Below, one piece after another: positions 11,050 to 48,114 of a stretch of DNA of 64,000 nt. The DNA comes from a virus. The position numbers and the translations under genes are program-made. The stretch lies in the UHGV virus genome UHGV-0279745, one strand, 5' to 3'. A model generated the notes under the pieces. It searched no databases. It had not been told where the DNA came from and was given only the letters and a program-made list of their open reading frames with translations. The stretch's first letter is position 1. The number at the start of each line of letters is the position of its first letter.

Positions 11050-13287
11050 ATGAAAACGCCAGTAGAGCTAATGAGCAGTGTGGCTGACCGTGAGATTAAT
11101 ATCACCGAAGTATCAGGTGCAAGGGCATCGATGGTAGGCAACCATATGAAGTCTGCGGTCCCTATCGACAATCCTGAACCATCGCCGCATTTTACAGGCG
11201 CAGATATAAACTACCACGATTTTCTGTTCAACGACGTTGTAGAAGATCCCGGTAGCATCTGCCACTATATGACCAAAGACGGTCGTCAGCGCCGCGCGAC
11301 GTTTACACGTTATGGTCGTCGTGGGGATTCTAAAGCGTTAGAACATGCTATCTTCTTCCGCCGTGCAGAAATGAAGGGCGGTAAAACCATGATAGATGTG
11401 CTGGAGATTAACTTCTATACTAACCACGACAACATCTTCTCATCTGAGAAACGTGAGTCGATGAAACTGCGTAGTATTTTACGTGGTGAAACCGATCAGT
11501 TGGAAAAGGATGAAATCCTTACAACGATGTCGTGTATGGTGGAAGGCGAGTACGCCGATAGCGTTGTGCTACCAACCGTTACGATTTCGCATCCTGATAT
11601 CATCGAGGATTCTTACACCATCTCTGAGTACGCCGCCCAAAAACTCCACGGTTATGGTTTGAAAATCGTTGAAAAGACGCTACGTGAAGACGAGTTTTTA
11701 CTGGATACTTACGGTTATATCGATCCGAACGGTAATCGCGTCCCACGGTATTTCCCGGATGTGGGGGAGGCTATTCGTGACGATGGGTTGGTCATTGCAT
11801 CGCGTCGTTTCGATGAACTTTACGGTGCAATTGATGCGTCGCTTGGGGAAACCCAACACGTCTCTCCGTTCTTTGATAGTTGCGAATATGTGGATGCCGA
11901 TCCCGTCCATTATAAAGCACGTCTTGCAGGTGACAAAGAACTGATGGAACGTAGCGGTACACGTATCGTCGATATCCAGGTGTGGCGTGATGAAACGTCT
12001 TGCGCGAATGGTGCTAACAATATTTCTTGTACCGAAGAGAACAAACGAGAACTGGATAAATACGCATTAGCATTGAAAGACTATTACAATGCCATCGTAC
12101 GATTCTATTTCTCGATGTCCCGTGACAAAAATATTATCTGGTCGCCGAAAGCGTGTGTGTTGTTGGAGAAAGCGTTCGCTTCTGAAACGTACGAGGTCTA
12201 TCACGAGTTTCGTGAAGAGATACGCGTGGTGATTGATGAAGCAATTCGTCGTGGTGAATACGGTAAAGAAAATGTCAGTCAGCAGATTCTTTCTAAGTTG
12301 ACCTCGCCAGTACAACGTGGACTCAGCGATCCCATCAACACGTATACCATTCGTATTGCTGTTCGTTATCCGATCCCGGTAACGGTGTCGTCTAAGATTA
12401 CCGACCGCTCGGGTACGAAAGGGATTGTTGGACGTGTATTACCCGTTGAACAGATGCCGATTAACGAATTCGGTGAACGTGTTCACGTTTTACGTTCGAT
12501 GAACGCTGTAATTCGTCGCTCGACATATGCAGCATTATTCCACATGTATTGGTCAGCTGCGTCTGAACAGTTGAAAATGCGTCTCAAACCATTGCTGGAT
12601 GAAGGACGTATCAGCGAGAGCTGGGAAATCCTGATGGATTATCTATCACGCTATAATCCAGAATGGGCCAATACACTACAGGCAACGCATCCTACGGAGG
12701 ATTTACAACGCGAACTTTTCAAAGAGATTTACGATTTTACAATCCGTATTTACTTACCACATGAACTTGACGACACGCCAGTCGATATCAGTGAACGGTT
12801 GGGTGAATTTAAACCGCGTAAATCCAAACTCCTGATTACTAATTTCGATGGTAAACAGGAATGGACAAAAAATGAGTTTTACGTAGGTGGTGTGGAAACA
12901 TTACGTCTGGATAAAACAGGTCGTGAGTTTTCCAGTATTTCGTCAATGTATCTGAATTATCTGGGTACGATAGACGCGTCTAACCAAGGCCGTGGTTCGT
13001 ATCCGATAAACTATAAAACGCTAAAATGGGCTGGTCCTTCGGAAGAACGACTGTTAGCGGGTTATGGTCCAGGTAACTACGAAGAAGTTCACGACAGGGC
13101 AAATAACCCTGCGGTGCATCGTGAGATTTTAGTAGGGCTTTATCGATCTCAAACCCCGTCTAATCCGGGTCCACTGGTAGACCGAAATAAATTCCCGTTA
13201 GGGGATTCACAGATTGACAGGATGATGAAAAACATTCACAGCTGTGAAGGGTTTGAATTGGTGAAAATGAAAAGGGGCGATGAATAA
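11050..13287 (+). CDS. multisubunit RNA polymerase beta subunit, C-terminal module
   Basis: [12 protein letters not shown] resembles [39 protein letters not shown] resembles [37 protein letters not shown] resembles EMEVWALEAYG. All in the same order as bacterial beta. Confidence 0.75.
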   Translation: [745 protein letters not shown]

Positions 13288-15386
13288 TGAAGGGCACTCC
13301 AGTTCACGTGCGTGATCTGTGTAAACTGAACTCGGATCAGGTGTGGCTATTGCGCGGCAGATATGAAGTGACGTTCGATGACGGGATAACCTTAAACATG
13401 TCAGGACGCCACATTAAAATCAGTTGGCCTTATTGGGGGCTAACACGATTTTATCCGCAGATCCCAATCAGTTCGCAAATGGCGTATAAACATGGCGACA
13501 CCGCTACAGATGACGCACATCTGAAGTTTATGTCATTGGCAGCTGTGGCAGCACGTAAAGCGGGTGTGGATTTAGCAGATACCCGCTATTTATTGCAGCA
13601 GCACGTCTATGCGGATGCGTTTAACTTATCGGTGAAAAATCTGTTGTCGTATTGTGTCACGATTGACTACGATACGATGATGGAAATTTACCAACACCGA
13701 AATTTTACGCAGATTCATCAGTGGGCACAAATGTATCCTACTGGGTACGACGAAGAAGGTCGGGATATGATCGAAGAAGCGTATCTTCTTATCGAAGATA
13801 TCTTCAAAGACCCACAACTTCGTTTAAACCCTGTGGTGATGTCGGTCTTGGATAAGACCATCAAAATGAACCAGGTTCTCCAGGCGTATATACGTGGGAA
13901 AACATCAGAGATTGATTCTCGCGTTTATTCTAACCAGGTATGGGAAGGTTTCTTTACGGGTCTACATTCTGTAATTAGCCGTCTGAAAGAAGCGGGAGCG
14001 ACGTCACGTTCTCACCTGTATAATACCGATAAAATCGCCGATGCGGAATATGCGTCACGTAAGCTACAGTTAGCAGCCAACGTGCTAATGTATTTCGAAT
14101 ACGACGATTGTGGTACGCATCATGTTCATCGCCACACGTTTACAGAAAGTAAACTGGAGCGTAAGAAGTACGACGCGATGGTGGGAATGCGATATCGTTT
14201 TGAAGGCGTGGGTGGCCCGTGGCTACGATTCGAGAAAGGGGAGTTTGAGAAAGTCTTAGGCAAACCTATTGAGTTTCGTACCGCGATGTGTTGTAAGGGG
14301 ATGGCACGTCAAAGCATTTGTGCAACATGCATGGGTGATTTGATTTATAACCTTTCGCCGGGAACATCCCCAGGTCACTTGGCATCAACCTCGATATCTG
14401 AAAAGGGTACACAGGGGATTCTCTCAACGAAGCACTTGGACTTCTTACGCTATCTGCTGAATCTGGTGCTGACTCCAAGAATGCGGGATTATCTTGGGGA
14501 GTATAAACACAACTCCGTAAAAGGGTTGAGTTTACGGGAGAAACCACAGTACGGTAATTGGGATGAATACCAACTCGTTATTTCTGATGAAGTCTATTCT
14601 GAAATCAGCCAAATCGCGTATCATGACGATTTGGAAGTGATCGACGAAACGGCATTGCCGGAGATTAACGAACTGACCTTTTTGCGGTTGGATGAAGCTG
14701 GGAATGTGTTGGCTGAAGATCCCATTGACGTCCGTATGGGGGTTTGTGGTAACTTCTCGAAAGCCTTCTTGCATTTCTTCCTGAAACAGCGCGATAACAT
14801 TACCTTCCCGTCGAAGAAACTGGTACGGATTCCCCTGAAAGGATGGAAACCGAGTTGGCCGATACTAATTTATACGAATCGGTCTGAATCTATGGCGGAG
14901 TTTGTAGCAGGGTTAGAATTGAAACTTCGTTCGGTTGCGTCTGATAAATCGGATACTTTCGAACAGTTCTCTGATGACTCAATGCGTTTGAGCAAGAAGT
15001 CGGGTAAGGTAAAACCAACGACACTGGTTCAGATGCGTGGTGCTACGGAGAAACAATGTACGCACGCGTTATTTGATGTGTTTAAATATATCCAACGTAA
15101 GCTCGGTGGTATTCCGATGACTCACATCGCGATTATGCTGGCGATATCACGCGTTGAATCACCGACCAATCCTTTCCCGGCGGTTGGGTTTGATAGTGAA
15201 GATGCTGATGTGATGGATGGCAAACGTTTCGAGGATCACAATACGTTGATTGCGATGCGTTCAGCTGTACCGATGTTGTTATTCGAAGGCCAACAGAAAA
15301 ACCTGGACAACGTGCGTTTCTACACGTCGCGTAAACGTCCGGCGTCGTTATACGACAATACGGTGGCCGCGACTATCATTGAGTAA
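13287..15386 (+). CDS. multisubunit RNA polymerase beta' subunit, C-terminal module
   Basis: Translationally coupled to the beta module (1-nt overlap). KGMARQSICATCMGDL resembles the bridge helix RKGLADTALKTANSGYL; ASTSISEKGTQGILSTKH resembles trigger-loop AAQSIGEPGTQLTMRTFH. Confidence 0.6.
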   Translation: MKGTPVHVRDLCKLNSDQVWLLRGRYEVTFDDGITLNMSGRHIKISWPYWGLTRFYPQIPISSQMAYKHGDTATDDAHLKFMSLAAVAARKAGVDLADTRYLLQQHVYADAFNLSVKNLLSYCVTIDYDTMMEIYQHRNFTQIHQWAQMYPTGYDEEGRDMIEEAYLLIEDIFKDPQLRLNPVVMSVLDKTIKMNQVLQAYIRGKTSEIDSRVYSNQVWEGFFTGLHSVISRLKEAGATSRSHLYNTDKIADAEYASRKLQLAANVLMYFEYDDCGTHHVHRHTFTESKLERKKYDAMVGMRYRFEGVGGPWLRFEKGEFEKVLGKPIEFRTAMCCKGMARQSICATCMGDLIYNLSPGTSPGHLASTSISEKGTQGILSTKHLDFLRYLLNLVLTPRMRDYLGEYKHNSVKGLSLREKPQYGNWDEYQLVISDEVYSEISQIAYHDDLEVIDETALPEINELTFLRLDEAGNVLAEDPIDVRMGVCGNFSKAFLHFFLKQRDNITFPSKKLVRIPLKGWKPSWPILIYTNRSESMAEFVAGLELKLRSVASDKSDTFEQFSDDSMRLSKKSGKVKPTTLVQMRGATEKQCTHALFDVFKYIQRKLGGIPMTHIAIMLAISRVESPTNPFPAVGFDSEDADVMDGKRFEDHNTLIAMRSAVPMLLFEGQQKNLDNVRFYTSRKRPASLYDNTVAATIIE

Positions 15387-22662: not shown

Positions 22663-23172
22663 ATGGCAACTAAAGATATTTCGACACAAGATGAACGCCC
22701 ATCAGCGGTAAGACGCGCTGAGGAAAATGCGGTAACTTACAGTCAGGATGATGCGTACCAGGTGCGGCTTATTGCTACTCAGCTCGATGAGGCTGGCGGG
22801 GCAATTAGCCAAAATAAACCGAAAGATACCCCAGAAGCTGACGACGCTTTCCGTAAGCTGCATCAATCGTTCCGCACGTTATTTGAACTACGTGGTCAAG
22901 CATTCATTGATGCGTTCAACGTGTTCGTTGAAGCTGCAATTAAACACAAACGTGGTATCTTCTACTATCCGAATGTGAACTACCATTTGGATTGGTTTTA
23001 CGATTCCGCTGAACGTGAAACATACGTCGTGTTTATCAATATGTTAGTACGTTTCGCAAATTCTCAGGATAAAGCAAACTTTGCTCAGCGTGACAACGTT
23101 GGACGTTTGGTACAACGTGTGACTGATCCAGAACTGCAACACTTACTGGCTTACTGCTTCAACGCGGCATAA
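22663..23172 (+). CDS. hypothetical protein
   Basis: 169-aa ORF, followed by the terminator at 23176-23220. Confidence 0.5.
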   Translation: MATKDISTQDERPSAVRRAEENAVTYSQDDAYQVRLIATQLDEAGGAISQNKPKDTPEADDAFRKLHQSFRTLFELRGQAFIDAFNVFVEAAIKHKRGIFYYPNVNYHLDWFYDSAERETYVVFINMLVRFANSQDKANFAQRDNVGRLVQRVTDPELQHLLAYCFNAA

Positions 23173-23175: not shown

Positions 23176-23220
23176 TATTACCCTACTCCCGAAGGAGTAG
23201 GGTAACGTTTATTTTTTTTT
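23176..23220. terminator. bidirectional terminator hairpin (12-bp stem TTACCCTACTCC)
   Basis: Stem 23178-23189 / 23194-23205, flanked by an A-run and a T-run; lies between convergent genes. Confidence 0.65.
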
Positions 23221-25000
23221 ACTTTGCAGCTTTGATGTATTCAAAAGGATCGGTAATTGTTTCTCCTTGTCTACGTAGAAAAGCTTCTAAGACGTCATTT
23301 TTATCGGGCAACAGGAAGAAATCTGTCGCGATTTCCATTGCATTGACTCGCCCCGCAGTAAGGTTAATACCGACACGACGCCGAACCTCTTCAGGAACAC
23401 CATGAATGCTCAGTAGCTCGATTAACGTTGTTTCACGAGACTGGTTCATCATGTTCGTTGCAGATGGGTATGCCTGGGTTAAGTCAGCATCTGCAGTTTG
23501 CCCACGGAAAGCCGTGTAGAAATCATCAACTTCCTTGATGATGTTTCGTAGCCCATTCTCTGCGTTCATACACGCAGTCAATGTAACAATCCAACCATCC
23601 GTCCCAATGACTTCATTGTCGAAATCGTTACGCATCGCGCTACCCACACAACCGATAACCAGGCCCTGTTCATAGAGGTAATACGTGTATGCAATACAGA
23701 TTCGCTTCGGTAGAGAAGGGAAAATATCATACATCGAATAACCCGCCAAAACTGAAATAGCAGAAGACAGATCGTTCGTCTTTTTATCGAGCAGAACAAT
23801 CATCAAGTTATCGAAGATGTTATAAACGCAGTATTCTAACGGGAAATCCTTCTGCGCCTTTAAGTGCCATTCCAACTTTTCCTCGTAGGGCAGTTCCGGT
23901 AAGTCCAACTTGTTTAAACCCAACTCGGTTTCCAGTATCGCGTTAAGTTTGTAAGAGGGGCGTTGTCCCTCGTGTACACGCAATGAACGGAATAGACACA
24001 TTGCATCTACACAGTAGAATGACGCCGTACAATAAAGAATGTGCCACTGTTGCGAAGGCGCTTTTGTTAATGACTTTGATTCTGTTTTCTTCGATGCTTC
24101 GTCTTTCTTAAAGTAGACACGACGGTACTGTTTTGGCACGTCAGGATGACAGAAGACGTCTTCCGGTGGAATCCCCGCAGCTTCTAAAGCTTCCAACATA
24201 CGTGAAATATCGAACTCGTGGTTCCATGCGACGAGTAAGTCAGGAAGCCGAGGATGAATTTCTTCAAACATCCGTTGAATGCAACAACCTGAATTGAGGC
24301 ATTCGTAAACGAAGATTTTGTAACCATCGATAACGTTTTTGTATTTAACGATGGGGTTGTCGTTCTCGTCTTTTCCACGAAAAGCGATTTTAGAAAGCAA
24401 TTCTTGAGCACGTTTGACGAGTCGTGCTTCAAAGTTTTCACGTCCGCAACGGGTGACGTAGTCTTTCGTAGCAAAGAAATGAATTTCGTCGTCTAAAACA
24501 AAACTCATAATCCAGGGGTCTCGAGACTTATCTTCTTCTCGAGTTTCCACGTCGTATACACAGATACGGTTAGGAGAAACGGCATTAGGCCATTTACGCA
24601 TGTACTTTTCTTTAATCCAGCTAGTAATGGGCAAATCAGCCCAGTAAACATACGGTGAAGTACAAACCTGACGGAGCGGTTTCTTTTTATCGGGAAAACG
24701 AATCCCCAGACCCATCTGTATGGTTGAGGACATCATTACATCCGTTGTTAAATATTCCTGGCACTTACTACGTTCTTCGTATTCTTTCTTTTCCTTGTGG
24801 TTACGATGCTGTGGTAAAGTAATGTAGATGGGCCGTTTCAGATTTTCACGCATGACAATTCGTGGGATATATCTGCCATCTTTAGTATGGACGACCTCCT
24901 TTATGAGCACGAAGTCGTTTTCTTTCTGCTGATCGGTTGCGTAAGAAACAAACTTGCACTCCTTGGCAATAACGTCTTCCGGTGCGTAATAGTTATTCAT
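23219..25000 (-). CDS. DNA polymerase family-B-like protein, 3'-5' exonuclease module
   Basis: Exo I ICVYDVETRE, Exo II VAWNHEFD and Exo III YCVYNIFD in canonical order; possible motif-A-like MYDIFPSLP. Start placed at the Met of MNNYYAPED (24998-25000) because the longer track ORF would overlap the divergent gene. Confidence 0.6.
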   Translation of the reverse strand: MNNYYAPEDVIAKECKFVSYATDQQKENDFVLIKEVVHTKDGRYIPRIVMRENLKRPIYITLPQHRNHKEKKEYEERSKCQEYLTTDVMMSSTIQMGLGIRFPDKKKPLRQVCTSPYVYWADLPITSWIKEKYMRKWPNAVSPNRICVYDVETREEDKSRDPWIMSFVLDDEIHFFATKDYVTRCGRENFEARLVKRAQELLSKIAFRGKDENDNPIVKYKNVIDGYKIFVYECLNSGCCIQRMFEEIHPRLPDLLVAWNHEFDISRMLEALEAAGIPPEDVFCHPDVPKQYRRVYFKKDEASKKTESKSLTKAPSQQWHILYCTASFYCVDAMCLFRSLRVHEGQRPSYKLNAILETELGLNKLDLPELPYEEKLEWHLKAQKDFPLEYCVYNIFDNLMIVLLDKKTNDLSSAISVLAGYSMYDIFPSLPKRICIAYTYYLYEQGLVIGCVGSAMRNDFDNEVIGTDGWIVTLTACMNAENGLRNIIKEVDDFYTAFRGQTADADLTQAYPSATNMMNQSRETTLIELLSIHGVPEEVRRRVGINLTAGRVNAMEIATDFFLLPDKNDVLEAFLRRQGETITDPFEYIKAAK

Positions 25001-25071
25001 GATTTCACTCTCAAATCTAGCGGCTGCTATACTGATTTGTGGGTAATGTAATTTCTCAAAAGGAAACACAA

Positions 25072-26406
25072 ATGGGATATTGGCAAAATCACATTGCATC
25101 AGTTGCGGATGCAAAGGTTGTAGCCGCAGAATCGATTAAATTCCAAGACAAAAAGAAGCTGGCAGAATTGGCTGATGTTATTGCTAAGTTTCGTGGGGCA
25201 GGCGATTTCAGTCCTGCAGGCTACGAAAGTGCCGGGGTTTCGGATTGGGTATTTAAGAATATCGGCATTACGATTCACTTTAAGAACGGTAGCGAACTGG
25301 GTCTTGTTGACGTTGCTTTTGCAGGCGTAGAACCACCGAAATTGGATGCAAACAGTCCAATCATTGCATCGATGACTCGCGCACTGTACGCAGGTAACAA
25401 AGACCTGGATATGTACAGTAAGTTCATCAAAGAAAATGAACTGAACACATCTATCGATGACAGCAGTGCAAAAATCAGTGGCGATTTAAGCAAAGTGGGT
25501 TCTCCGCTTTATCTTACCCCGGTGCTGCTGGAAAAATTAAATTTGACCGATCTGGAAATCGCCTCGGTGATTCTTCATGAAGTCGGCCACATCTACTATT
25601 ATTTCCGTACGCTAATGCGTACCGTGGTGACTGATTTGCTGGCAGATGCTGCGGCTAACCGCATCATGGAAACAGAGGACCAGACTGTCCGCTTGCGCAT
25701 TGTTAAAGACGTAGAGAAGATGCTGAACACGAAAGTGAATCAGCCAGAGACCATCTGTACCGAGTACAAAAAAGAAAACGTCTACATGCACTTAGTCACG
25801 CAGTTGTTATTAGATCGCCCGTTCATTAGCGGTAGTCAAGGCTTTGCTAACAGAACGTGGGAACGTGCTGCGGACGATTTTGCTTCCCGTTTCGGGGGCG
25901 CTCCTTATCTGGCCTCTGCACTGTATAAAATGGAAACCAGTTCGTTCTATTTGCTGCGGAACTCAGCGTATATGAACATGGGTGTCCATTTGACAGTAGA
26001 ACTTTTCCGCGTGACTGCGCTGATAGTCTCTTCTACGATTCCAATTATTCCAGTGATTTCCGTGACGTTCGGAATGATCTTAAATGACCCGGATAACACC
26101 ATTTACGATCCGCCGCAGCAGCGTTTTGAGGCAATGCGACGTACACTCGTTGAAGAACTCAATACGATTAAAGACAAAAATACGAAGGCGGCTAACGAGC
26201 AACGTAAACGTATTTTAGATGGTATTGCGGTTATTGACAAGTTATTAGAAATCGTAAAAGATAAAGATAACTTGTATCAGTTTATCTGGAATACTTTAAC
26301 GCCGAAGGGTCGTCGCTCACGTGCTGCCGTTGATTACCAGCGTGCGATTGGGAAGTATATGTCGAACGATCTTCGTATTGCTTCAGCCATGTTTAATGTC
26401 GAATAA
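25072..26406 (+). CDS. putative zinc metallopeptidase-like protein (HExxH motif)
   Basis: ILHEVGHIYYY contains the HExxH zincin signature; RBS AAGGA; start placed at the first ATG. Confidence 0.4.
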   Translation: MGYWQNHIASVADAKVVAAESIKFQDKKKLAELADVIAKFRGAGDFSPAGYESAGVSDWVFKNIGITIHFKNGSELGLVDVAFAGVEPPKLDANSPIIASMTRALYAGNKDLDMYSKFIKENELNTSIDDSSAKISGDLSKVGSPLYLTPVLLEKLNLTDLEIASVILHEVGHIYYYFRTLMRTVVTDLLADAAANRIMETEDQTVRLRIVKDVEKMLNTKVNQPETICTEYKKENVYMHLVTQLLLDRPFISGSQGFANRTWERAADDFASRFGGAPYLASALYKMETSSFYLLRNSAYMNMGVHLTVELFRVTALIVSSTIPIIPVISVTFGMILNDPDNTIYDPPQQRFEAMRRTLVEELNTIKDKNTKAANEQRKRILDGIAVIDKLLEIVKDKDNLYQFIWNTLTPKGRRSRAAVDYQRAIGKYMSNDLRIASAMFNVE

Positions 26407-35491: not shown

Positions 35492-35550
35492 GGGGGCCCC
35501 TCATTCTAGGGGCGTGTAATTGGGTTATATAACCAAAGGAAATAAACGAA

Positions 35551-36822
35551 ATGGCAAATTTCGCAAAAACTCGCGCCGCTCGTGAATCGATGGAAGCGGC
35601 CGATGAAGTAATCGACGGTATCAGCAACGTTGAACCGGCAGAAGAGAACCTGGACGTCCAACTTGCGGACGTAGCATCTATCGACGGTCAGCTCGATCAG
35701 CTGGAAACCGACGGTGAAACCCTGGCTGCCGATACCGAGCGTACTGAAGACGCTATCGAACAGGCGGAAGAAGCCGTTGCTAACGGTGAAGAAATGCCGG
35801 AAGAAGCGGTTGCCCTGCACGAAGTGGCACAGGAATCCATCGCACGTCGTTGGTGCCTGGAACGTACTAAGCTGGCTCGCGAATCCTATCGTCGTGGCCG
35901 TGGTATGACTGCTGCTGCCCAGGAAGGTTGGAAAGAAACCCTGAAAGATCTTTACGATCGTTTCATTCAGTTCTGTAAAGAAGTGATTGCGAAGATCAAA
36001 GACCTGAAACTGAAATATTTCAACGTCGGTAAGACCGCACAGAAACGTGCGAAGAAATATCAGGAAATGCTGCGTAAGCTGGGCAAACAGAAGAAAGATG
36101 AGATCTCTGGTGGCTTTATCACCAAGCTGTCTATCGAAGGTAAATTCGATGCTGCTGGCTCTATCGCTATTGCGAAAGAAGTTACCGCAGGTAAAGCTAA
36201 AGGTTCCATCGCTGTTCTGGAAAAACAAGCTGGTGAAGCTGTGACTGCCGTTACCAAAGGTGACGATGACGCATTCAAGGCAATGCGTGGTGATCAGCCG
36301 GTAGAACTGTTTGGTAAAGCTGCTTCTAAACTGCACACTCTGCCGAACTTTGAAAAAGGTGATGCGTCTAAACTGCTGGCTCTGCCGGGCAACGCTTACA
36401 TTCAGGCTGGTACTAAAGAACTGGCTGGCGGCCACAAGTTCACCGCAATTGCTTTCATGAGCACCGGTGACGCTTCTGACGATAAAGACGTGAAAACTCC
36501 GTCTGTTTCTGAAATGGCTGGTGCTGCTTCTGCTCTGGAAGCGATCGGTAAAGGTTTCGAAGCCGTACTGAAAGATTTCCGTGCTTACGATTCTGAAATC
36601 GTGAAGCTGCAACAGGCTGCTGAGAATGCTGCTAAGGCGCTGAACAACGAAAAAGACGATAGCAAGTGGGATGGCCTGCGTAACGCACGTCAAGCTGCCG
36701 ATTGGTCTGTTAAGAACTACCAGACCCTGAACCGCGCAGTTAGCTATGTTGCTAACACCGTTATTAGCGGTCTGAATGGCTACCTGGGTGCTGGTATCGG
36801 TGCTTACGAAAAATCTAAATAA
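35551..36822 (+). CDS. abundant acidic protein, tandem paralog A (virion/inner-body-like candidate)
   Basis: 423 aa with strongly optimised codons; shares an MANF-K-ARESME N-terminus, a central RKLGKQKKDEISGGFI block and a GLNGYL-AGIGAYEKSK C-terminus with 36905-38170. Confidence 0.7.
   Translation: MANFAKTRAARESMEAADEVIDGISNVEPAEENLDVQLADVASIDGQLDQLETDGETLAADTERTEDAIEQAEEAVANGEEMPEEAVALHEVAQESIARRWCLERTKLARESYRRGRGMTAAAQEGWKETLKDLYDRFIQFCKEVIAKIKDLKLKYFNVGKTAQKRAKKYQEMLRKLGKQKKDEISGGFITKLSIEGKFDAAGSIAIAKEVTAGKAKGSIAVLEKQAGEAVTAVTKGDDDAFKAMRGDQPVELFGKAASKLHTLPNFEKGDASKLLALPGNAYIQAGTKELAGGHKFTAIAFMSTGDASDDKDVKTPSVSEMAGAASALEAIGKGFEAVLKDFRAYDSEIVKLQQAAENAAKALNNEKDDSKWDGLRNARQAADWSVKNYQTLNRAVSYVANTVISGLNGYLGAGIGAYEKSK
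36082..36121 (+). repeat. 40-bp perfect direct repeat, copy 1 (shared with 37478-37517)
   Basis: GGCAAACAGAAGAAAGATGAGATCTCTGGTGGCTTTATCA is identical in both paralogs. Confidence 0.8.
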
Positions 36823-36904
36823 TCATTTAGATTCGTAGTTCCGTACAGTTCTTGAAATAAATCATCAGGGGAACAATACGTTCCCCTTAGAGGAAAAGCT
36901 TAAA

Positions 36905-38170
36905 ATGGCGAATTTCTACAAAAACAAAATTGCTCGTGAGTCTATGGAGTCTACTTCTACTGTAGTTCCAGACGGCATCGAACTGCCAGCAGAATCCGTA
37001 GAAGGCACTCTGGCCGATATCGAGCATGACACCAAACCGATCGAAGCTCTGGACGCTGACGCTGAACTGCTGGCAGAAGACGGCGACGAAACTGACGCTC
37101 AGCTGGATGTTCTGGATGAAGCTCAGGCTGCTGCTGACGGTGAAGGTGCTGGCGAAGACGGTGAAGAACCGATGGACGCCGAAGAAGATATGCCGGACGA
37201 CGCTGCGACTGCGCTGGACGTTGCTCAGGAATCTATCCGTTCTCGTTGGAACTTCGAACACCGTTCTTCTGTTGCTCACGAATCCTACGGTTCTCGTAAC
37301 CGTCGTCAGGTTGCTCGTGAATCCCTGTGGGAAGACATCAAAGCCTTCCTGGGCCGTATTCTCGATTGGCTGAAAGAACAAGGCCGCAAACTGAAAGATC
37401 GCTGGCTGAAATTCCACAACCAGGGTAAATCTATTCAGGCGCGTGCTAAGAAATACGATGAAGTTATTCGTAAGCTTGGCAAACAGAAGAAAGATGAGAT
37501 CTCTGGTGGCTTTATCAAGTCTCTGTCTATCGACGGCAAGTTCGTCGGCGATAATATTCCGAAACTGAAAGGTATCCTTAACCAGGTCTCCTCGTTCTAT
37601 AGCGCTAAGATGCCTGCCATGGCCGCTAAAGCTGCTGAAGTGGTTTCCGATGTTACCAAAGGTAATGGTGTTAAAGTTGAAAAACTGAAAGCCGACTTTA
37701 CCGAACTGTCCAAACAAGACAGTCTCCAAAACTTCAAGCTCGGTAACATGGCGGTGAAAACCGAGTATGACAACGAAGGCGGCTTCAGCTCCACCTTTGT
37801 TGAAGCTGAAAACAGCGTTGAAACTAGCGTGAAAACTCCGTCTGTTGGCGAACTGGCCAAAATCAATGCTCTCTTCAACGAAGTGGGTAAACAGATTGAG
37901 AAAAACGTTCAGGATTATCGTAAAGTCGAAAGCGCGCGTAAAACCTTTGAAGATAATATCGATAAGCTCCTGAAAGAAGTCGATAAAGTTAAGATCGACG
38001 AAAAACCGGAACTGACCGAAGGTGTACGTGCTGCCCGTCGTTTCATCACCAGCGTTAACCAGGGTCTGTCTCTGGGTGAGAAGGTTATTGCTTCTACTCA
38101 GAAACACCTGGCCGGTGGTCTGAACGGTTACCTGAGTGCCGGTATCGGCGCTTACGAAAAATCTAAATAA
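36905..38170 (+). CDS. abundant acidic protein, tandem paralog B
   Basis: 421 aa; paralog of 35551-36822; optimised codons; followed by a strong terminator. Confidence 0.7.
   Translation: MANFYKNKIARESMESTSTVVPDGIELPAESVEGTLADIEHDTKPIEALDADAELLAEDGDETDAQLDVLDEAQAAADGEGAGEDGEEPMDAEEDMPDDAATALDVAQESIRSRWNFEHRSSVAHESYGSRNRRQVARESLWEDIKAFLGRILDWLKEQGRKLKDRWLKFHNQGKSIQARAKKYDEVIRKLGKQKKDEISGGFIKSLSIDGKFVGDNIPKLKGILNQVSSFYSAKMPAMAAKAAEVVSDVTKGNGVKVEKLKADFTELSKQDSLQNFKLGNMAVKTEYDNEGGFSSTFVEAENSVETSVKTPSVGELAKINALFNEVGKQIEKNVQDYRKVESARKTFEDNIDKLLKEVDKVKIDEKPELTEGVRAARRFITSVNQGLSLGEKVIASTQKHLAGGLNGYLSAGIGAYEKSK
37478..37517 (+). repeat. 40-bp perfect direct repeat, copy 2
   Basis: Identical to 36082-36121. 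Confidence 0.8.
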
Positions 38171-38186
38171 TCCCTGATTGTTTAGT

Positions 38187-38235
38187 AAGAGAACCACCCT
38201 GTAATGGGGTGGTTCTCTCTTTTCTTTTTTTTTTC
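38187..38235 (+). terminator. rho-independent terminator
   Basis: Stem AGAGAACCACCC / GGGTGGTTCTCT followed by a 16-nt T-run. Confidence 0.7.
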
Positions 38236-38247
38236 GATTAAAATAAT

Positions 38248-38289
38248 TTTCAGATATATATTACCTAGGTGAGATTACACAGTAATCTC
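38248..38289 (+). promoter_or_regulatory. candidate phage promoter (TATATTAC core) plus downstream inverted repeat
   Basis: 27-nt element TTTCAGATATATATTACCTAGGTGAGA is identical to 46505-46531; TATATTAC at 38257-38264; perfect inverted repeat GAGATTAC-aca-GTAATCTC at 38271-38289; about 68 nt upstream of ATG 38325. Confidence 0.5.
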
Positions 38290-38324
38290 TTTACGACTTG
38301 TTTATTACGTTTAGGAGAAATATC

Positions 38325-38966
38325 ATGAGCCGCATTAATTTAACTGATTTTGTTGATGGTGTTGTGTCTACGGATAAAGGTGTTGTTACGATGGTGGCAC
38401 CGAATAGTAAAGTTGTTACTTTAAATCCGGTAGAACTGATTTCTATTTCTACCTGGTTGCGCTTACTTTCTGGTAAGAAACCTAAAGACCAAGCGAAGGG
38501 TGGCTTATTAGTTGGTACACGTGAGTTTGTTTTCAAAGACATAACCCAAGATAAACTGGACAGCATTGCTAAAGAACTGAACGGCAAGCATAAAACTCGT
38601 GACATCGGGTGTGCCGAATATGACGGAGTAACGTACCATGCGTTTCTTGATAGTCACGTAGCATTGCGTGAAAAAGAAAATGGGATGTACGATTCAGTTT
38701 GTTTCTTTCACTTAATCGCACCAACAGAAAACGAAGCTGTGTATGAAACCGTTGAAAAATCGGCGGAAGCTGTTATGGAAACGGTGTCAGAACTTATAGA
38801 AGGGATGAAAAGAATCCCACGTGTGTTGAAAGTTACTGATGGGGCTTTCGATTGTTTTAAATTATTACCCCTAATAGCTAGTAAAGAATACGAAGATGAG
38901 AACACCTTCGGACTATTCGAAATTAGTCTTTCGGAAGCAGTTGTTACTTTCTTTGAAGATTTATGA
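38325..38966 (+). CDS. hypothetical protein
   Basis: Start at ATG 38325 with RBS AGGAG; first gene downstream of the promoter-like element. Confidence 0.6.
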   Translation: MSRINLTDFVDGVVSTDKGVVTMVAPNSKVVTLNPVELISISTWLRLLSGKKPKDQAKGGLLVGTREFVFKDITQDKLDSIAKELNGKHKTRDIGCAEYDGVTYHAFLDSHVALREKENGMYDSVCFFHLIAPTENEAVYETVEKSAEAVMETVSELIEGMKRIPRVLKVTDGAFDCFKLLPLIASKEYEDENTFGLFEISLSEAVVTFFEDL

Positions 38967-38970
38967 GATA

Positions 38971-39000
38971 AAAAACCCTCTACGGAGGGTTTTATTTTTT
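38971..39000 (+). terminator. rho-independent terminator
   Basis: Stem AAACCCTC / GAGGGTTT followed by a T-run. Confidence 0.6.
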
Positions 39001-39020
39001 CGACCTTTAGGAGAATAGAA

Positions 39021-39572
39021 ATGAATAAATTTAATATCTTAGACGCTGAAGTCGTATCTGAAACCAGTTTACAGCAGGAAATCTTTCGTATTCAGTTTGG
39101 CGATAAAACCCTTATCGTCCCACGTCCGGTAATGATTGGACTGGCTATTTTTATTAACTGTGCGCATTGTAATGGTTCTCAACTCTCCACGCTCACTTAC
39201 AACAATTACGAATTCTATATTCCAGAACACCTGGAATACGATCGTTTCATTGCTTTACGTCCGTTCTACAAGTTTATGTTAGACGCAGGTTATTCTACGC
39301 TGACGAAAACATACATTCGTGATTATTCGAAGCTGGAAACCTTTTACCGCCGTCGCGGTTATCGCGTTCCTGAGCCTATTGACGGTTTTCAAACACGCGT
39401 TGTGTTACTTAAACCGCTAGAAAAAGAACAGGCTTGCTATAAACTTGATATCGAGCAGAAGTTACTGCGCGAGGATTTGTTGAATTTATACAACCAGCTT
39501 TCAGTTGTACCGAAAAACACAGTAGAAAACATTCTACCTGATTACGGAATTAGACAATACCAGGAAGGTTAA
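39021..39572 (+). CDS. hypothetical protein
   Basis: 183-aa ORF with RBS AGGAGA. Confidence 0.55.
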   Translation: MNKFNILDAEVVSETSLQQEIFRIQFGDKTLIVPRPVMIGLAIFINCAHCNGSQLSTLTYNNYEFYIPEHLEYDRFIALRPFYKFMLDAGYSTLTKTYIRDYSKLETFYRRRGYRVPEPIDGFQTRVVLLKPLEKEQACYKLDIEQKLLREDLLNLYNQLSVVPKNTVENILPDYGIRQYQEG

Positions 39573-39574
39573 AA

Positions 39575-39880
39575 ATGAAACTCAAAGCCGATGCGATATG
39601 TGTTGTTAAGTTGCCGGAAAGTAATGTGGTGTACTGCGTAAAACGGCTAGACATTCGATTACTGATACCGAGACTTAATGAACCTGGTTGGAATGGGGAT
39701 TTGATGATTCCACTGATCAGACCACTCCCTACGAACGATGGCAATATAACGCATTTGCATATGGAAGCCAAAGGGCGGTACGTTACCGTTTACCATTTAG
39801 CCGATCAGTACAAAACGAGTCGGTATACCCGAAAAGATTTTATACGCCATTTAAGAGGCTCACTGGAGATAAAGAAATGA
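39575..39880 (+). CDS. hypothetical protein
   Basis: 101-aa ORF; its stop overlaps the DHFR start (ATGA). Confidence 0.5.
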   Translation: MKLKADAICVVKLPESNVVYCVKRLDIRLLIPRLNEPGWNGDLMIPLIRPLPTNDGNITHLHMEAKGRYVTVYHLADQYKTSRYTRKDFIRHLRGSLEIKK

Positions 39881-40413
39881 CAATTACAGTTTCGATGATA
39901 GCTGCTGCTGGGTTGAATAACGAAATTGGGAAAGACAATAAATTACCGTGGCGTATTCCCGATGACTTAAAGAATTTTAAGGCACTTACATCAGGTAAGG
40001 TTATCGTGATGGGAAGCAAGACATGGGAATCGTTAGGGTATAAACCCCTGCCTAATCGTCACCATGTCGTGTTGACGAGAAGACCTGGTGGTGTGCCCGA
40101 AATCGATGGGGTGCTTAACCTTAAGGGTGAAATGGGGTCGATTATTGAATTCCTCAAAACCGAGGTTGAGAAAAAGGGTTATCCTAAAGAAATCTTTATT
40201 ATCGGTGGGGCAGAAATTTACCATCAGGCGTTACCTTACGCGAATAAGATTTACTTGTCACGCGTAGAAGTTAAAGTCGATGGTGCGGATGCGTTCTTTC
40301 CTGAAATCGATCGTAACAAGTTTAGACTGGTTTATAACTTAACGCACGCTTCCAAACCGGATAGCGATGTCCCACGTTGGCATTATCAGATTTGGAAAAG
40401 AGATGGGCACTGA
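39877..40413 (+). CDS. frd: dihydrofolate reductase
   Basis: 178 aa; LPW, VIVMGSKTWESLG, PLPNRHHVVLT, IIGGAEIY and IYLSRVEVKVDGADAFFP match conserved DHFR blocks (compare E. coli VIMGRHTWESIG, IGGGRVYEQ). Confidence 0.9.
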   Translation: MTITVSMIAAAGLNNEIGKDNKLPWRIPDDLKNFKALTSGKVIVMGSKTWESLGYKPLPNRHHVVLTRRPGGVPEIDGVLNLKGEMGSIIEFLKTEVEKKGYPKEIFIIGGAEIYHQALPYANKIYLSRVEVKVDGADAFFPEIDRNKFRLVYNLTHASKPDSDVPRWHYQIWKRDGH

Positions 40414-40789: not shown

Positions 40790-42298
40790 ATGCAACAGTA
40801 TTTTGAAATTCCGTCGTTAGACGCGACCATTCGCAAACCAATAATCGATGGCGTTATACAACGTGTACTTAATGAGTCTGGTATTGATACAGCAGCGGTT
40901 GTTTTCCTCGATGAATTCAATAGCGCCCATCAACCGGATTCTACTTTAGGTGACGGTACTGAAGTAGAGTACAGTTCACCTGAAAAGGTTTACGTTGAAG
41001 TAGAAGAAGAACGTGATGAGTGGGCCAGAATCAATCGTCAGGTTGGTCAGCAGGCTGAACCGTACTTCTTTGAGAACCGTGTCGATCAGGTACGCGCCTG
41101 GCCCGTTAGAACGATGTATAACGTAACAGTAACGTTACGACGTACCAGTGCCTCACGTGATGAGTTATTGCGCTGGACGAACCGTTTAGACTCATTAGTG
41201 GACATGGGCCGTTATTCGACCATGACAGAGTCAGAAGCGTTCTATTATATCCCTAAACCCGCGTTAAAGTTGTTGAATGCCTGCTACGTTGCTGCAGGAA
41301 CACGAGTACCGACGTTTGACGATTTTAAAGCTTATTTGAAAGCGTATTTTACGCCCGACGTATTTCGTGCAGCCAATGTTGCCGGGGGGCAGGAAACCAT
41401 TGCGGTACGTTACGCACCTACGCGTTTAGAAACGGTATATGACGTTCAAACACCGGCTTGGGATAAAGATGAAAACCACTGGGAAGCAACGTTCGTTATC
41501 CGTTTCTCTTATCAGCGCCCTGAAGAGATTGTGGTATCGTATCCGTATATCATCAATCAGACACCACTGCCCGATGAATATTGGCCGGAGATAGATCCTC
41601 CGTGGGTATCTAACGAGGAGTTAGTTTACCGCCATCCACAACAGAAGAATCTCGATTCAACCTGGTGGATTAACGAAACTCGTCAGTATATTCGTCTCCC
41701 GTATTTGTTATCTCCCACGGAACAGTTCCATCGTACGCACTCCCCGCTTAAAGATAAACTCTTACCGATTTTCGGTACAGATGTTGTTTTTGAACCGGAC
41801 AACATGTTATCGCCGAAGGTGATGTCTACGGAAGATTTACCTTACGAATGGAACGAAGCGTTGCTACCGTATATCGAACATTGTCGTGCGATCGACCCGA
41901 CAGGACAGACGGGTGTTTTCCGTATCGAGCTGTTCGAAGAGGGACAGATTATCGAACCGCGTTTCTACCATTGGGAAGGAAATACGTTTTCGCTTAAAGG
42001 TCGTGACCTGAAAGTAAATAAGGGTTATTACTTAACCGAATCGGTCATGTTTGACTGGCGTGGAATGAACCTCTGGCCATTACAGTTATATCCACAGGCA
42101 GCGAAAGTATTAATTGAGTGGTTGTTCCCGAAATGGGACGTTCCTGATTGGTGGTGGGATAAGCCGGTGTTACCGCCGAGTGTTATCGATGACATTAATA
42201 AACTGATTCCGAACGTAGAAGCCCGTGTGTTATTGACGGTGCTGAACTCGACCATTATTACCATGCGAGGAACAGAGAATGCTCAAAGCGAAGCGTGA
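40790..42298 (+). CDS. hypothetical protein (first gene of a coupled five-gene array, possibly structural)
   Basis: 502-aa ORF; RBS GAAGGAA. Confidence 0.6.
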   Translation: MQQYFEIPSLDATIRKPIIDGVIQRVLNESGIDTAAVVFLDEFNSAHQPDSTLGDGTEVEYSSPEKVYVEVEEERDEWARINRQVGQQAEPYFFENRVDQVRAWPVRTMYNVTVTLRRTSASRDELLRWTNRLDSLVDMGRYSTMTESEAFYYIPKPALKLLNACYVAAGTRVPTFDDFKAYLKAYFTPDVFRAANVAGGQETIAVRYAPTRLETVYDVQTPAWDKDENHWEATFVIRFSYQRPEEIVVSYPYIINQTPLPDEYWPEIDPPWVSNEELVYRHPQQKNLDSTWWINETRQYIRLPYLLSPTEQFHRTHSPLKDKLLPIFGTDVVFEPDNMLSPKVMSTEDLPYEWNEALLPYIEHCRAIDPTGQTGVFRIELFEEGQIIEPRFYHWEGNTFSLKGRDLKVNKGYYLTESVMFDWRGMNLWPLQLYPQAAKVLIEWLFPKWDVPDWWWDKPVLPPSVIDDINKLIPNVEARVLLTVLNSTIITMRGTENAQSEA

Positions 42299-43649
42299 TA
42301 AACCGTCTTCTTTCGAACCGGTGGAACGCCCGATCCCTGAGTTGAATAAACCACAAGACGGTGTGAAAGAAACCACGAACGTGGTGACACAACCGACACG
42401 TACAACGGTGACGGATTTAGAGCGTATACCGAAACAGTACCTGATGAAGTACCTGGAAGGGTCTTCCTGGACAGTGGATTTCTTTAATTTCCTGAAAGGG
42501 CGTAATGACGCGAAGAAATTCTTCGATTCGAAGGTACTTACGCCTGACCAGCAAGTAGAGAAAATCATCGGGTTAGAATTGCGGGTTACCACACCGTTAG
42601 ATCGTTCTCAGGATACAACGAACAAAACGTTCACCATGTCTGGTGCCGCAACAATGGCGAACTCGGTGATTCCCAACGAAGGGTGTTTTTTCGTTGCCCC
42701 GATTGGAGACGGACGGTTCGCGTTGTTCAATGTCACGAACGTCGTGCGGATGTCCAATAACAAAATTGCAACGTATAACATTGAATATACGCTGCTGTTT
42801 GAAGTTGATCCAGAAGTTGCAGAAACCATTCGCCGGTGTACGGTCCGTGAGTATTATTACGTTTCTGAACGTGCCTGGACGGGCGGTGATACGTTACTGA
42901 CACCGAAAGAATATCGTGCGTTTTTGAAGGTCGTTGATGCGATTGCAGACATTGAACAGACTTACGTAAAACGGTTTTACGATGGGGAAACGGCAACGTT
43001 GCTTTTCCCGCACGATCGGCACAGCGATGGGTTGCGTAGCCGTGCGTACTACGATGTGTTCTTAGCACAGTTCGTACGCTCTGTAGGCTTACGCACTGTT
43101 GGTAAAGATATTCAAATCTATCCACACCCGCCAATGCGTGTGGAAGATATTGAAACGGTCTGGACAGCGTTGTTAAATCAATCGCCAACGTTCTTAGCGG
43201 ATTACAAACGTGATTCTAGTGTCTGGCAGGTAAAAACCTTCCGTACGATGCAGCATCGAAATTCTGTGACCTGGTCATTAATTTCGGATACCAGATTCTT
43301 TACCGATGAATTAAAACCGGGCTATGGGATGGCGCAACGTTTCCCTGGACAGTGGCCGAAGTGGACGGAGTTTGAACCGGTTGAAGTGGAGAACTATCGG
43401 GGTAATGAAGGTGAATCAATCCCTGCATTTCTACCACTGACTTACGAACCGTATTTGTTAAGCCCAACGTTCTACGAGGGCTCGTACAGTTCGTTATTAG
43501 AATACGGTTTATATCTCTATCTGAATAAACGCCCACTGTCAACGGTAATTGCATTACGGTTGTTTGAAGAAGTTTACCGTTTGCCAAAGGATGCGCAGTT
43601 CTACTATATTCCGATGGTGTATTTGTTGTTACGGTATGCGAGGGATTAA
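42279..43649 (+). CDS. hypothetical protein
   Basis: 456-aa ORF; RBS GAGGAACAGAGA; overlaps the upstream gene. Confidence 0.6.
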   Translation: MLKAKRDKPSSFEPVERPIPELNKPQDGVKETTNVVTQPTRTTVTDLERIPKQYLMKYLEGSSWTVDFFNFLKGRNDAKKFFDSKVLTPDQQVEKIIGLELRVTTPLDRSQDTTNKTFTMSGAATMANSVIPNEGCFFVAPIGDGRFALFNVTNVVRMSNNKIATYNIEYTLLFEVDPEVAETIRRCTVREYYYVSERAWTGGDTLLTPKEYRAFLKVVDAIADIEQTYVKRFYDGETATLLFPHDRHSDGLRSRAYYDVFLAQFVRSVGLRTVGKDIQIYPHPPMRVEDIETVWTALLNQSPTFLADYKRDSSVWQVKTFRTMQHRNSVTWSLISDTRFFTDELKPGYGMAQRFPGQWPKWTEFEPVEVENYRGNEGESIPAFLPLTYEPYLLSPTFYEGSYSSLLEYGLYLYLNKRPLSTVIALRLFEEVYRLPKDAQFYYIPMVYLLLRYARD

Positions 43650-43650
43650 C

Positions 43651-44190
43651 GTGGCTGAAAAACGTAGCGCAGCATTTATGCTGTTTCACAAGTGGGTGGG
43701 GTGGCGTGTCCCTGAATGGACGACGATTTCAACGTACATGTCTCAGGAACATGGGTTGTTCTTACCGGAAGACGAGAAAAAAGCACGCGCGATACTGCTC
43801 AATAAAAAGACTGTATACATGCGACCTTTCGAAGTTGCGGTTTATGCAGAATCAGGCGCAGCATTAGACGTCCACGACCCACATGACGGGATCATCGTGT
43901 ACGGGTATATCATGGAACACTTAGCTGATTGGCTAAATTACATGCAGACCCCACACCTGACAACACGTAAAGTCCCTATGGAGGGCTTGCGTCAGTTTAA
44001 TGCGTTAGCGCGTAAACTGTTCCCGGTAGCGAACCGTTACGGTTACTTTAAGAAACCTGAAGTAACAATGGCGGTTTCCGTACAAGCGTTATTTGGCGAA
44101 GTCCGATTGGAAACAGAACGGCATCAGTTCAACGATACGATTATGCACCGTATTGAACAGATATACCGTAGACGTGGAGGAATTCTGTAA
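43651..44190 (+). CDS. hypothetical protein
   Basis: Start placed at GTG 43651 with RBS GAGGGA; the track's start at 43549 would overlap the upstream gene by 100 nt. Confidence 0.45.
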   Translation: MAEKRSAAFMLFHKWVGWRVPEWTTISTYMSQEHGLFLPEDEKKARAILLNKKTVYMRPFEVAVYAESGAALDVHDPHDGIIVYGYIMEHLADWLNYMQTPHLTTRKVPMEGLRQFNALARKLFPVANRYGYFKKPEVTMAVSVQALFGEVRLETERHQFNDTIMHRIEQIYRRRGGIL

Positions 44191-45541: not shown

Positions 45542-46342
45542 ATGAGTAATCTACTTACTTTCAGAATGTCTGGCCAAACGTTAATTCAAATCGACAAGTT
45601 CGAAGAAGAGAATTTTTCGAAACCGTCGAAGTTGTTAGAACGTTGCCTTAATGTTATTCCCGGTGGCGAACAACGCCAGTTGGATTACATCATGGCGTCC
45701 AGTGCTGACAAAACGATTTCTGTTATTTATACCGTAGACGGTGTACAGAATTGTCGCTTATTACCAATCGAAGAAAAAGGGACGTTAGGTCATTTGTTGT
45801 TCCTGCACGCGATCACAACTGCCGTGGTGTCTGGTGCTTTAGAAGCGCAATACGGCTTTGCTTATTGTTACTTCTATGCTCAGAAATTAGCTGCAGCGGT
45901 TATTCCAGGGCAACAAGAAACCTATCCTCAGTATATTGAACGTATTCTCCCTTCACACTTTAGTGAGTCGGAAGACTACGACTTCAATGCGTTTCGTTTT
46001 ACCGTGGTGGGCGAAGCCCGCGATCCTGAATACACAACAGCGGTTCGTGCGGTGGTGCGCTATTCTGTTATTTCTACAGACAGCGGTACATCAAATAACT
46101 TTAATGAAGTGTATCCGGTCTTGCAGTTAGGTCCTTATGTGACTTTCAACAGCTACGTACCATTCAGTTGTCAGCTTGTGGGTCCGCAGGATAACGATTC
46201 TATTCTCCCTGTTGCGGAAGAAAAGTCATTGTTTATTCGCGAATCTGTAGAAGCTATTAGCGATAAGCGCTTTATGATTTCTTCGAAGACGGGCATTAAC
46301 GATCCTGAAATCGCTGTAATGGATAAGATGCAAGGTCTGTAA
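45542..46342 (+). CDS. hypothetical protein
   Basis: Start at ATG 45542 preceded by CCTAAAGGA. Confidence 0.55.
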   Translation: MSNLLTFRMSGQTLIQIDKFEEENFSKPSKLLERCLNVIPGGEQRQLDYIMASSADKTISVIYTVDGVQNCRLLPIEEKGTLGHLLFLHAITTAVVSGALEAQYGFAYCYFYAQKLAAAVIPGQQETYPQYIERILPSHFSESEDYDFNAFRFTVVGEARDPEYTTAVRAVVRYSVISTDSGTSNNFNEVYPVLQLGPYVTFNSYVPFSCQLVGPQDNDSILPVAEEKSLFIRESVEAISDKRFMISSKTGINDPEIAVMDKMQGL

Positions 46343-46346
46343 AAAC

Positions 46347-46390
46347 TTCCCGTTACCTCTATGGGTAACGGGAATACCTTTTATTTATTC
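46347..46390 (+). terminator. rho-independent terminator
   Basis: Stem CCCGTTACC / GGTAACGGG followed by a T-rich tract. Confidence 0.55.
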
Positions 46391-46504
46391 CTAAACGACA
46401 CGCAGAAGTCATTTAACCGTTAAGACGACTAATTACCCTTTAAAAAGAAAATTGCGTCAGAATGCGTTTTAGAGCGTTCTAGAGGGTATATGGATTCAAA
46501 AAGA

Positions 46505-46546
46505 TTTCAGATATATATTACCTAGGTGAGAGTTTACGTAATACTC
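46505..46546 (+). promoter_or_regulatory. candidate phage promoter (TATATTAC core), second copy
   Basis: Same 27-nt element as 38248-38274; TATATTAC at 46514-46521; imperfect inverted repeat downstream; about 64 nt upstream of ATG 46578. Confidence 0.5.
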
Positions 46547-46577
46547 ATTTATCGAATACCTAATTAGGAGTTATATC

Positions 46578-46721
46578 ATGATTTCTGTAAAACACAAAAA
46601 AGCTATCTTCGCTGTTGTTATCGCTGTTGTTCTGGGCTGCCTGTATCTGGACATCGACAAAGGCTACGACACTTGCATTGACAACGGTAATTCCGTTGCA
46701 CAGTGCACTGGTCGCGGTTAA
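46578..46721 (+). CDS. putative small lipoprotein or membrane peptide (47 aa)
   Basis: Not in the ORF track (under 60 aa). RBS AGGAG; n-region KHKK, hydrophobic AIFAVVIAVV, lipobox-like VLGC, three Cys in the predicted mature part; optimised codons; followed by terminator at 46726-46758. Confidence 0.45.
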   Translation: MISVKHKKAIFAVVIAVVLGCLYLDIDKGYDTCIDNGNSVAQCTGRG

Positions 46722-46725
46722 TGTA

Positions 46726-46758
46726 TAAGGCACCTTCGGGTGCCCTTAATTTTTTTAT
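46726..46758 (+). terminator. rho-independent terminator
   Basis: Stem AAGGCACC / GGTGCC(C)TT with TTCG loop, followed by a T-run. Confidence 0.55.
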
Positions 46759-46775
46759 TAATTGGAGCATAAAAG

Positions 46776-47591: not shown

Positions 47592-47604
47592 AAGCAACCC
47601 CTAA

Positions 47605-47650
47605 TCCCGAAAAGGATTAGGGGTACACTTTATTTATTTTCGCATTTTCA
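47605..47650 (+). terminator. rho-independent terminator
   Basis: Stem CCCCTAATCC / GGATTAGGGG followed by a T-rich tract. Confidence 0.6.
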
Positions 47651-47667
47651 ACATAGGAGAAAAGTTC

Positions 47668-47826
47668 ATGAAACATGAACAGTTGTTTCAAAGGCTAAAC
47701 GAGTTGTCCGTAAAACAGCTCGAATTTCAACGAAGGGTTAGTGAAATAGCGCAACCAACGTTAACTCAGCCCAAAGTTGCTTATCCAAGAAACACCCAGT
47801 TGATAGTTGAAAGGAGAAGTAACTGA
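47668..47826 (+). CDS. hypothetical small protein (52 aa)
   Basis: Not in the ORF track; RBS AGGAGA 7 nt upstream of the ATG; followed by a hairpin cluster. Confidence 0.35.
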   Translation: MKHEQLFQRLNELSVKQLEFQRRVSEIAQPTLTQPKVAYPRNTQLIVERRSN

Positions 47827-47833
47827 TAAAAAA

Positions 47834-47922: not shown

Positions 47923-48114
47923 ACAGCACCATTACGGAAACGTAATGGATTTCTTTAATCACCCTACAAAGAGGGCTTATACCATGAACAATGGTTACTA
48001 CTTTACTGACAAAATGCTTGCAGAACAGAGTGCAACAGAGACTGGCGGAACAGTCTCTGCTGTACGGTGTCAACACATAAAGTTGTTGACGTTTTTACAA
48101 CATTACGAAAGGTA

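Follow-up and report, generated by a model that had tools for sequence, protein, structure and literature searches.

The minus-strand gene at 23219-25003 of the window, i.e., the whole stretch of 64,000 nucleotides analysed from the virus genome UHGV-0279745, very likely encodes the N-terminal subunit of a heterodimeric family-B replicative DNA polymerase. Its partner would be a PF20286 protein, and the active site is probably composite. The identity of the gene as one part of a split polymerase is already known, and the window copy adds another phiKZ-type member to the family. The gene and the structure at its 3' side are as follows.

23219-25003, minus strand: DNAP-N-type gene (N-terminal subunit of a split family-B DNA polymerase), 594 aa and a stop; ATG at 25003, stop codon at 23219-23221.
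23177-23206, both strands: bidirectional terminator-like hairpin with a stem of 12-13 bp, six G-C pairs, and T runs on either strand.

The longest minus-strand ORF at this site extended over 23219-25114, i.e., 631 aa counted from TTG. The gene start was assigned to the ATG at 25003, giving 594 aa, because residue 1 of Erwinia phage Asesino gp61 aligned to this codon (the protein starts with MNNYYAPED) and the gene calls in close relatives were 593 aa long. A GAGAG-type ribosome-binding sequence was found upstream of this ATG. The original prediction, made from the sequence alone, had ended the gene at 25000, 3 nt short. Its description of an isolated minus-strand gene was borne out, as the gene is the sole one on the minus strand amid plus-strand neighbours. 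The hairpin is placed directly past the stop codon, between the convergent genes at 22663-23172 (plus strand) and 23219-25003 (minus strand). A scan for sigma-70 promoters returned 3 sites, compared with 4.3 expected, and added no information.

The relationship of the protein to family-B polymerases (PolB) was recognized by profile comparison. No family was matched in Pfam search, and single-sequence phmmer against the PDB gave nothing but a chance match to CDK7 (E 1.8). The family profile, searched against the PDB, hit RB69 gp43 (E 1.8e-8) in three collinear stretches, i.e., Exo I-II, Exo III, and motif A. By hhalign against RB69 gp43 alone, residues 143-529 of the window protein were aligned to RB69 106-433 (probability 97.5%, E 8.8e-12). 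Against a T4-like PolB profile of 27 sequences, residues 65-531 were aligned to RB69 52-435 in one continuous alignment (98.7%, E 3.3e-16), which placed ADAD-LTQAYPSATNMMNQSRETT over the RB69 motif A stretch and stopped at RB69 residue 435. The fold found is that of the PolB N-terminal and exonuclease domains and not an unrelated one, the outcome that the original prediction had named as refuting it. The sequence-alone reading had correctly recognized a polymerase fragment so divergent that it escapes both Pfam and single-sequence searches of the PDB.

The following parts were delimited within the gene, with motif residues numbered on the 594-aa protein.

24578-25003, minus strand: PolB N-terminal domain, about aa 1-142.
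23624-24577, minus strand: DEDDy 3'-5' exonuclease domain, about aa 143-460.
24545-24553, minus strand: Exo I, D151-V-E153, invariant in 61/61 homologues and aligned to RB69 D114/E116.
24209-24223, minus strand: Exo II, N261-H-E-F-D265, aligned to RB69 WNVESFD (D222).
23810-23824, minus strand: Exo III, Y394-N-I-F-D398, invariant and aligned to RB69 Y323/D327.
23462-23485, minus strand: polymerase motif A, D507-L-T-Q-A-Y512-P-S514, lined up with RB69 D411-LTSLYPS...NISPET in one unbroken alignment.
23222-23410, minus strand: C-terminal helical tail, aa 532-594, with no RB69 counterpart aligned.

Conservation was assessed in an alignment of 61 homologues ranging from 94% to 27% identity. D151, E153, N261, Y394, D398, D505, D507, Y512, P513, and T525 were invariant, and D265 and N520 were conserved in at least 90%. 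Since this conservation holds down to 27% identity, the motifs go beyond chance. Exo I (DxE), Exo II (NxxxFD), and Exo III (YxxxD) occurred in the canonical order that had been predicted, with their carboxylates conserved. Motif A is flanked by the invariant D505 before it and by N520-QSRE-T525 after it. The original wording for this segment, possibly motif-A-like, was right about the place and too weak about the identity. Judged by sequence comparison, it is a genuine motif A, with its residues present in 61/61 homologues and its aspartate aligned to RB69 D411.

By pattern search, neither motif B (KxxxNSxYG) nor the DTD pattern of motif C was found in the 594-aa protein, in agreement with the end of the RB69 alignment and with what had been read from the sequence. 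Motif A is therefore present on a polypeptide that lacks motifs B and C, and a complete polymerase in one chain is excluded by the missing motifs and by the extent of the alignment.

When the chain was modelled alone with AF2, the motif A segment (aa 467-529) showed a pLDDT below 50. Such low confidence would be expected if the strand needs the palm of the partner, although this is suggestive only. Helices at 538-593 in the tail were predicted with moderate pLDDT (59-81), and the tail is conserved up to about aa 570. It may serve as a docking element for the partner subunit.

In the PHROG database, the protein matched PHROG 3011 ("DNA polymerase") over its full length (E 7.7e-251, profile positions 2-573 of 576). 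Its identity to Asesino gp61 was 79.5% over 595 residues. By tblastn, homologues were found in 300 phage records, all of them phiKZ-like jumbo phages of Pseudomonas, Erwinia, Salmonella, Vibrio, and other hosts, and the best matches were Asesino and phiEaH2 (78%) and SPN3US (75%). The protein is 95% identical to the representative of a cluster (P0001) from metagenomes and E. coli-labelled assemblies, at whose locus the local gene order is the same as in the window. No record identical to the window protein was present in the assembly index.

Other genes of the window point the same way. Several phiKZ-type split multisubunit RNA polymerase (RNAP) genes, an SbcD-like nuclease, and a phiKZ-type major head protein (764-aa ORF at 50538-52832) were found. 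On its sequence, the window is DNA of a phiKZ-like (chimallivirus-type) jumbo phage.

Other features of the window were also noted. The minus-strand gene at 48425-49987 encodes a divergent DnaB-like replicative helicase (PF20307, E 2e-125; PHROG 3213, E 9e-199) and, as the polymerase N-subunit gene, it is a lone minus-strand gene amid plus-strand genes. On the plus strand, the genes at 35551-36822 and 36905-38170 are neighbouring paralogues that encode internal head proteins, each assigned to PHROG 2497. They are overlaid by near-full-length antisense ORFs on the minus strand (35506-36693 and 36887-38197), which were taken as mechanical ORFs. The G+C content dips to 0.40-0.41 at 38001-40000 and 46001-48000, compared with about 0.46 elsewhere. 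The ORF at 38298-38966 had no PHROG match and the ORF at 46776-47591 had a weak one (E 2.8e-6). Genes in these two low-G+C stretches may be more recently acquired.

At its start, the window cuts into an RNAP subunit gene, a homologue of Asesino gp40 ('RNA polymerase beta subunit'), which is interrupted by a group I intron at 749-1066 (Rfam RF00028, full model, 58.6 bits, E 2.7e-12). An insertion of 350 nt at 765-1114 is missing from the 98%-identical contig L002. When it is removed, ...RVIKAPNA joins DFDGDQLQ... and the L002 protein, ending at window position 1354, is restored, so the intron is placed inside the NADFDGD catalytic motif of the RNAP subunit. No endonuclease ORF was found within the intron.

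The original prediction had proposed that an ORF carrying PolB motifs B and C be sought in the full genome. Such an ORF is absent from the 64-kb window and is found, as a PF20286 gene, in near-identical contigs. When Asesino gp35 was searched against the window by tblastn, nothing significant was obtained (E 0.14 and 0.66). Two window genes were considered as the partner and rejected. The 764-aa ORF is similar in length, but it is the major head protein. PHROG 2943 labels the plus-strand gene at 54037-55812 'polymerase'; this gene, however, is homologous to phiKZ gp123 (PDB 7ogp_E, E 4e-18), which is one of the chains in the solved non-virion RNA polymerase of phiKZ, and is no DNA polymerase.

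In Asesino, two genes are annotated as "DNA polymerase", i.e., gp35 (12216-14501, plus strand) and gp61 (42176-43966, minus strand), and phage EL carries the equivalent pair, gp21 and gp51. Four contigs of about 220-228 kb carry the window ORF 1361-1948 exactly, each with a partner gene at the syntenic place. L002, the one of the four that was compared, is 98% identical to the window over its first 11.9 kb. Projected onto the window, its partner gene (L002:2640-4952, 770 aa) would occupy the stretch 4.0-6.35 kb before base 1; some 27 kb separate it from the N gene, which is on the opposite strand. Judging from such near-identical contigs, the window's own genome probably carries the partner gene. 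Directly upstream of it, L002:2123-2536 is a small PF20287 gene (SH3DP, 'SH3 fold domain associated with phage DNA polymerases', E 1.1e-30), corresponding to about 6.5-6.9 kb before window base 1. The PF20287 SH3 protein was suggested as a possible polymerase subunit by Iyer et al. (2021).

The 770-aa partner was assigned to PF20286, "Divergent Family B DNA polymerase" (E 2e-278), and also to PF00136 at aa 94-189, barely above threshold. Among 59 homologues, its invariant residues include R127, K131, Q153, K157, N160/N161, G165, T184, D423-T-D425-S, K501, and Y503. By hhalign, partner residues 111-186 were aligned to RB69 466-589 (E 0.0026, low probability), and residues 419-574 to RB69 617-772, spanning DTDS and KKRY (E 7e-4, low probability). 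Partner R127, K131, K157, N161, and T184 thereby correspond to RB69 R482, K486, K560, N564, and T587, which are likewise invariant in the T4-like profile. These alignments have probabilities of 11-27% and are individually weak, but they are mutually consistent and agree with the Pfam match. A helical insert of about 230 aa separates motif B from motif C.

The N-subunit reaches RB69 residue 435 at least and the partner begins at or before residue 466, which puts the break between motif A and the first finger helix. At the break, the N-subunit has about 60 extra residues and the partner about 110.

In the proposed enzyme, the N-subunit would supply the PolB N-terminal domain, the DEDDy 3'-5' proofreading exonuclease, and the first palm element with motif A, together with the helical C-terminal tail. 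RB69 D411 and Y416 are residues that we take to be a metal ligand and the steric gate, respectively, and by homology D507 would be the metal-binding aspartate and Y512 the sugar steric gate. The partner would supply the dNTP-binding finger helices (R127, K131, K157, and N161), the helical insert, motif C (D423-T-D425), KxY (K501 and Y503), and the thumb, and the two chains would assemble non-covalently into one enzyme. It had been predicted that palm and thumb are encoded elsewhere. This stands for the thumb, the fingers, and the rest of the palm, and fails for the first palm part, which is on the N-subunit itself. Since motif A and motif C lie on separate chains, it is likely that the catalytic centre would be made from two polypeptides, i.e., D505, D507, and Y512 of the N-subunit and the fingers and motif C of the partner, and that neither would polymerize alone.

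Previous descriptions of this pair differ on the point. Kazlauskas and Venclovas (2011) found the divergent polymerase, with exonuclease and polymerase on two polypeptides, and put both active-site aspartates, EL D229 and D398, on the polymerase ORF. Iyer et al. (2021) presented the exonuclease as a protein that may stand alone. Thomas et al. (2016) use the term "split subunit DNA polymerase" and credit its identification to Cornelissen et al. 2012. For phiKZ, the abstract of Basu et al. (bioRxiv 2026, PMC13648687) reports a stable 1:1 DNAP-N:DNAP-C complex with polymerase and exonuclease activity, its cryo-EM structure, solved at 2.1 A and homologous to PolBs, and a third, clamp-related subunit, Rhc; it gives no position for the split. 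This cryo-EM work very probably already documents the placement of motif A and the composite site.

The partner was examined for a motif A of its own. In EL gp21, D398 is the second aspartate of DTD, and D229 is located 69 residues after the KxxNN motif B. Of the 59 homologues, 48 have D in the D229 column of the partner alignment, 10 have N, and one has E, and D229 was rejected as motif A because the column is not invariant. The N-terminal 'RDIDxxDAY' of the partner was also rejected, as its aspartates are present in only 31/59 and 43/59 homologues. Upstream of motif C, the invariant acidic residues of the partner are limited to E199 and D288; both come after motif B, and the AF2 model has them within or between helices. 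D288 (L002 3501-3503) is within the helical insert, in the motif RAAFVYxGDxYHLAKYN, and is invariant in 59/59 homologues. It was nevertheless rejected as motif A, being placed after motif B and between two helices. The active site is probably composite because D505 and D507 are present in 61/61 homologues and are positionally motif A.

The same residues bear on the alternative that the original prediction had kept beside a split polymerase, i.e., a stand-alone proofreading exonuclease. It would act in trans, like the epsilon subunit of Pol III, loosely joined to a self-sufficient PF20286 polymerase, with motif A left as a relic. The protein was described in this way in 2011 and 2021, and the invariant D288 upstream of motif C would give the partner an aspartate of its own. 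However, a relic would hardly keep D505, D507, Y512, P513, and T525 in all 61 homologues and remain collinear with the RB69 motif A stretch. The finger residues of the partner precede D288, so D288 is not positionally motif A; AF2 does not place it at a strand end, and the EL D229 column varies. In phiKZ, moreover, the subunits named DNAP-N and DNAP-C are reported to form a stable 1:1 core. The stand-alone exonuclease is therefore considered improbable. The N-terminal piece of a split polymerase, the other half of the original prediction, is supported by PHROG 3011, by the PF20286 partner in relatives, and by the literature.

In E. coli Pol III, likewise, the proofreading exonuclease (epsilon, DnaQ) and most of the polymerase (with the alpha subunit) are on different polypeptides. 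That polymerase is of the C family, and the epsilon bound to it is a small DEDD domain that is not known to contribute to the polymerase active site. The window protein, by comparison, is 594 aa long, comprises the PolB N-terminal domain as well as motif A, and is thus not a small DEDD-only protein lacking polymerase motifs.

The closest known systems are phiKZ DNAP-N/DNAP-C, EL gp51/gp21, Asesino gp61/gp35, and the SPN3US homologue, which belong to the same family as the window gene (PHROG 3011). The window gene very probably has the same two-gene split with a PF20286 partner; it has the same phiKZ-type context, and in both the N gene is isolated on the opposite strand. The window copy is from an uncultured relative, and nothing functional sets it apart from the phiKZ group.

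RB69 and T4 gp43 are single-chain family-B replicative polymerases. Compared with them, the window chain ends about 87 residues past the motif A aspartate, its system has the fingers, motif C, and thumb on another protein, and the identity is about 15%.

A PolB that is likewise split is found in T4-like phages of Aeromonas and Acinetobacter as gp43A/gp43B, in which the N chain comprises the N domain, the exonuclease, and motif A. The two chains co-purify and are active, according to papers that cite this work (Petrov et al. 2006, 2010, cited in PMC3061061 and PMC2988022). The T4-like split is located in the fingertip, after R482/K486; in an Acinetobacter phage, 43A has 502 aa and its end corresponds to RB69 residue 503. 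Unlike in 43A, the break in the window system comes before the first finger helix, leaving R127/K131 on the partner. The distance between the T4-like cistrons ranges from 2 bp to 3 kb, whereas the window-type genes are about 27 kb apart on opposite strands. Thus, the N-subunit has neither a fingertip break nor a partner within 3 kb. Two separately encoded chains are also known for the PolBs of Methanothermobacter thermautotrophicus and Rhodothermus phage RM378. The two genes are 85 kb apart in M. thermautotrophicus, whose split, different from that of the window, falls in the palm, some 83 residues beyond the Pfu fingertip split in the C-terminal direction. The lineages of both are unrelated and their split points are unlike the window's.

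It is very improbable that the two genes result from a recent disruption of a continuous polymerase gene by a mobile element or rearrangement, i.e., that they are a pseudogene pair or a young split like 43A/43B. T4-like phages do have polB genes split by inserted DNA, and mobile DNA, the group I intron at 749-1066, is present in this genome. However, the layout of genes tens of kb apart on opposite strands is common to Asesino, EL, and hundreds of phiKZ-like records, and both families are conserved in full length down to about 27-35% identity. No fused form was found in the best 240 clusters, where the lengths were 485-936 aa and 589-807 aa. In two metagenome homologues of the N-subunit, P0077 (706 aa) and P0080 (936 aa), the conserved end is followed by a long C-terminal extension, largely acidic and measuring about 120-350 aa. 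These longest homologues inspected were rejected as fusions to the polymerase half, as no finger or motif C sequence was found in the extensions.

Split inteins occur in replication enzymes, and halves encoded far apart could be joined by one post-translationally into a single covalent polymerase. This explanation is extremely improbable here. No Hint/intein Pfam family was found in either half, and the N-subunit end (...FEYIKAAK) and the partner start (MEYNSPF...) show no intein-like junction residues. The phiKZ enzyme is described as a two-subunit complex.

If the two-chain active site is true, the computational descriptions of 2011 and 2021, i.e., a complete polymerase and a stand-alone exonuclease, would need correcting. 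The break at RB69 residues of approximately 435-466 would be a split position unlike those of the T4-like, M. thermautotrophicus, and RM378 enzymes. The placement of motif A on the exonuclease-bearing chain bears on how the replicase is assembled and on the earlier motif assignments, and two genes about 27 kb apart would together encode the polymerase active site of these phages.
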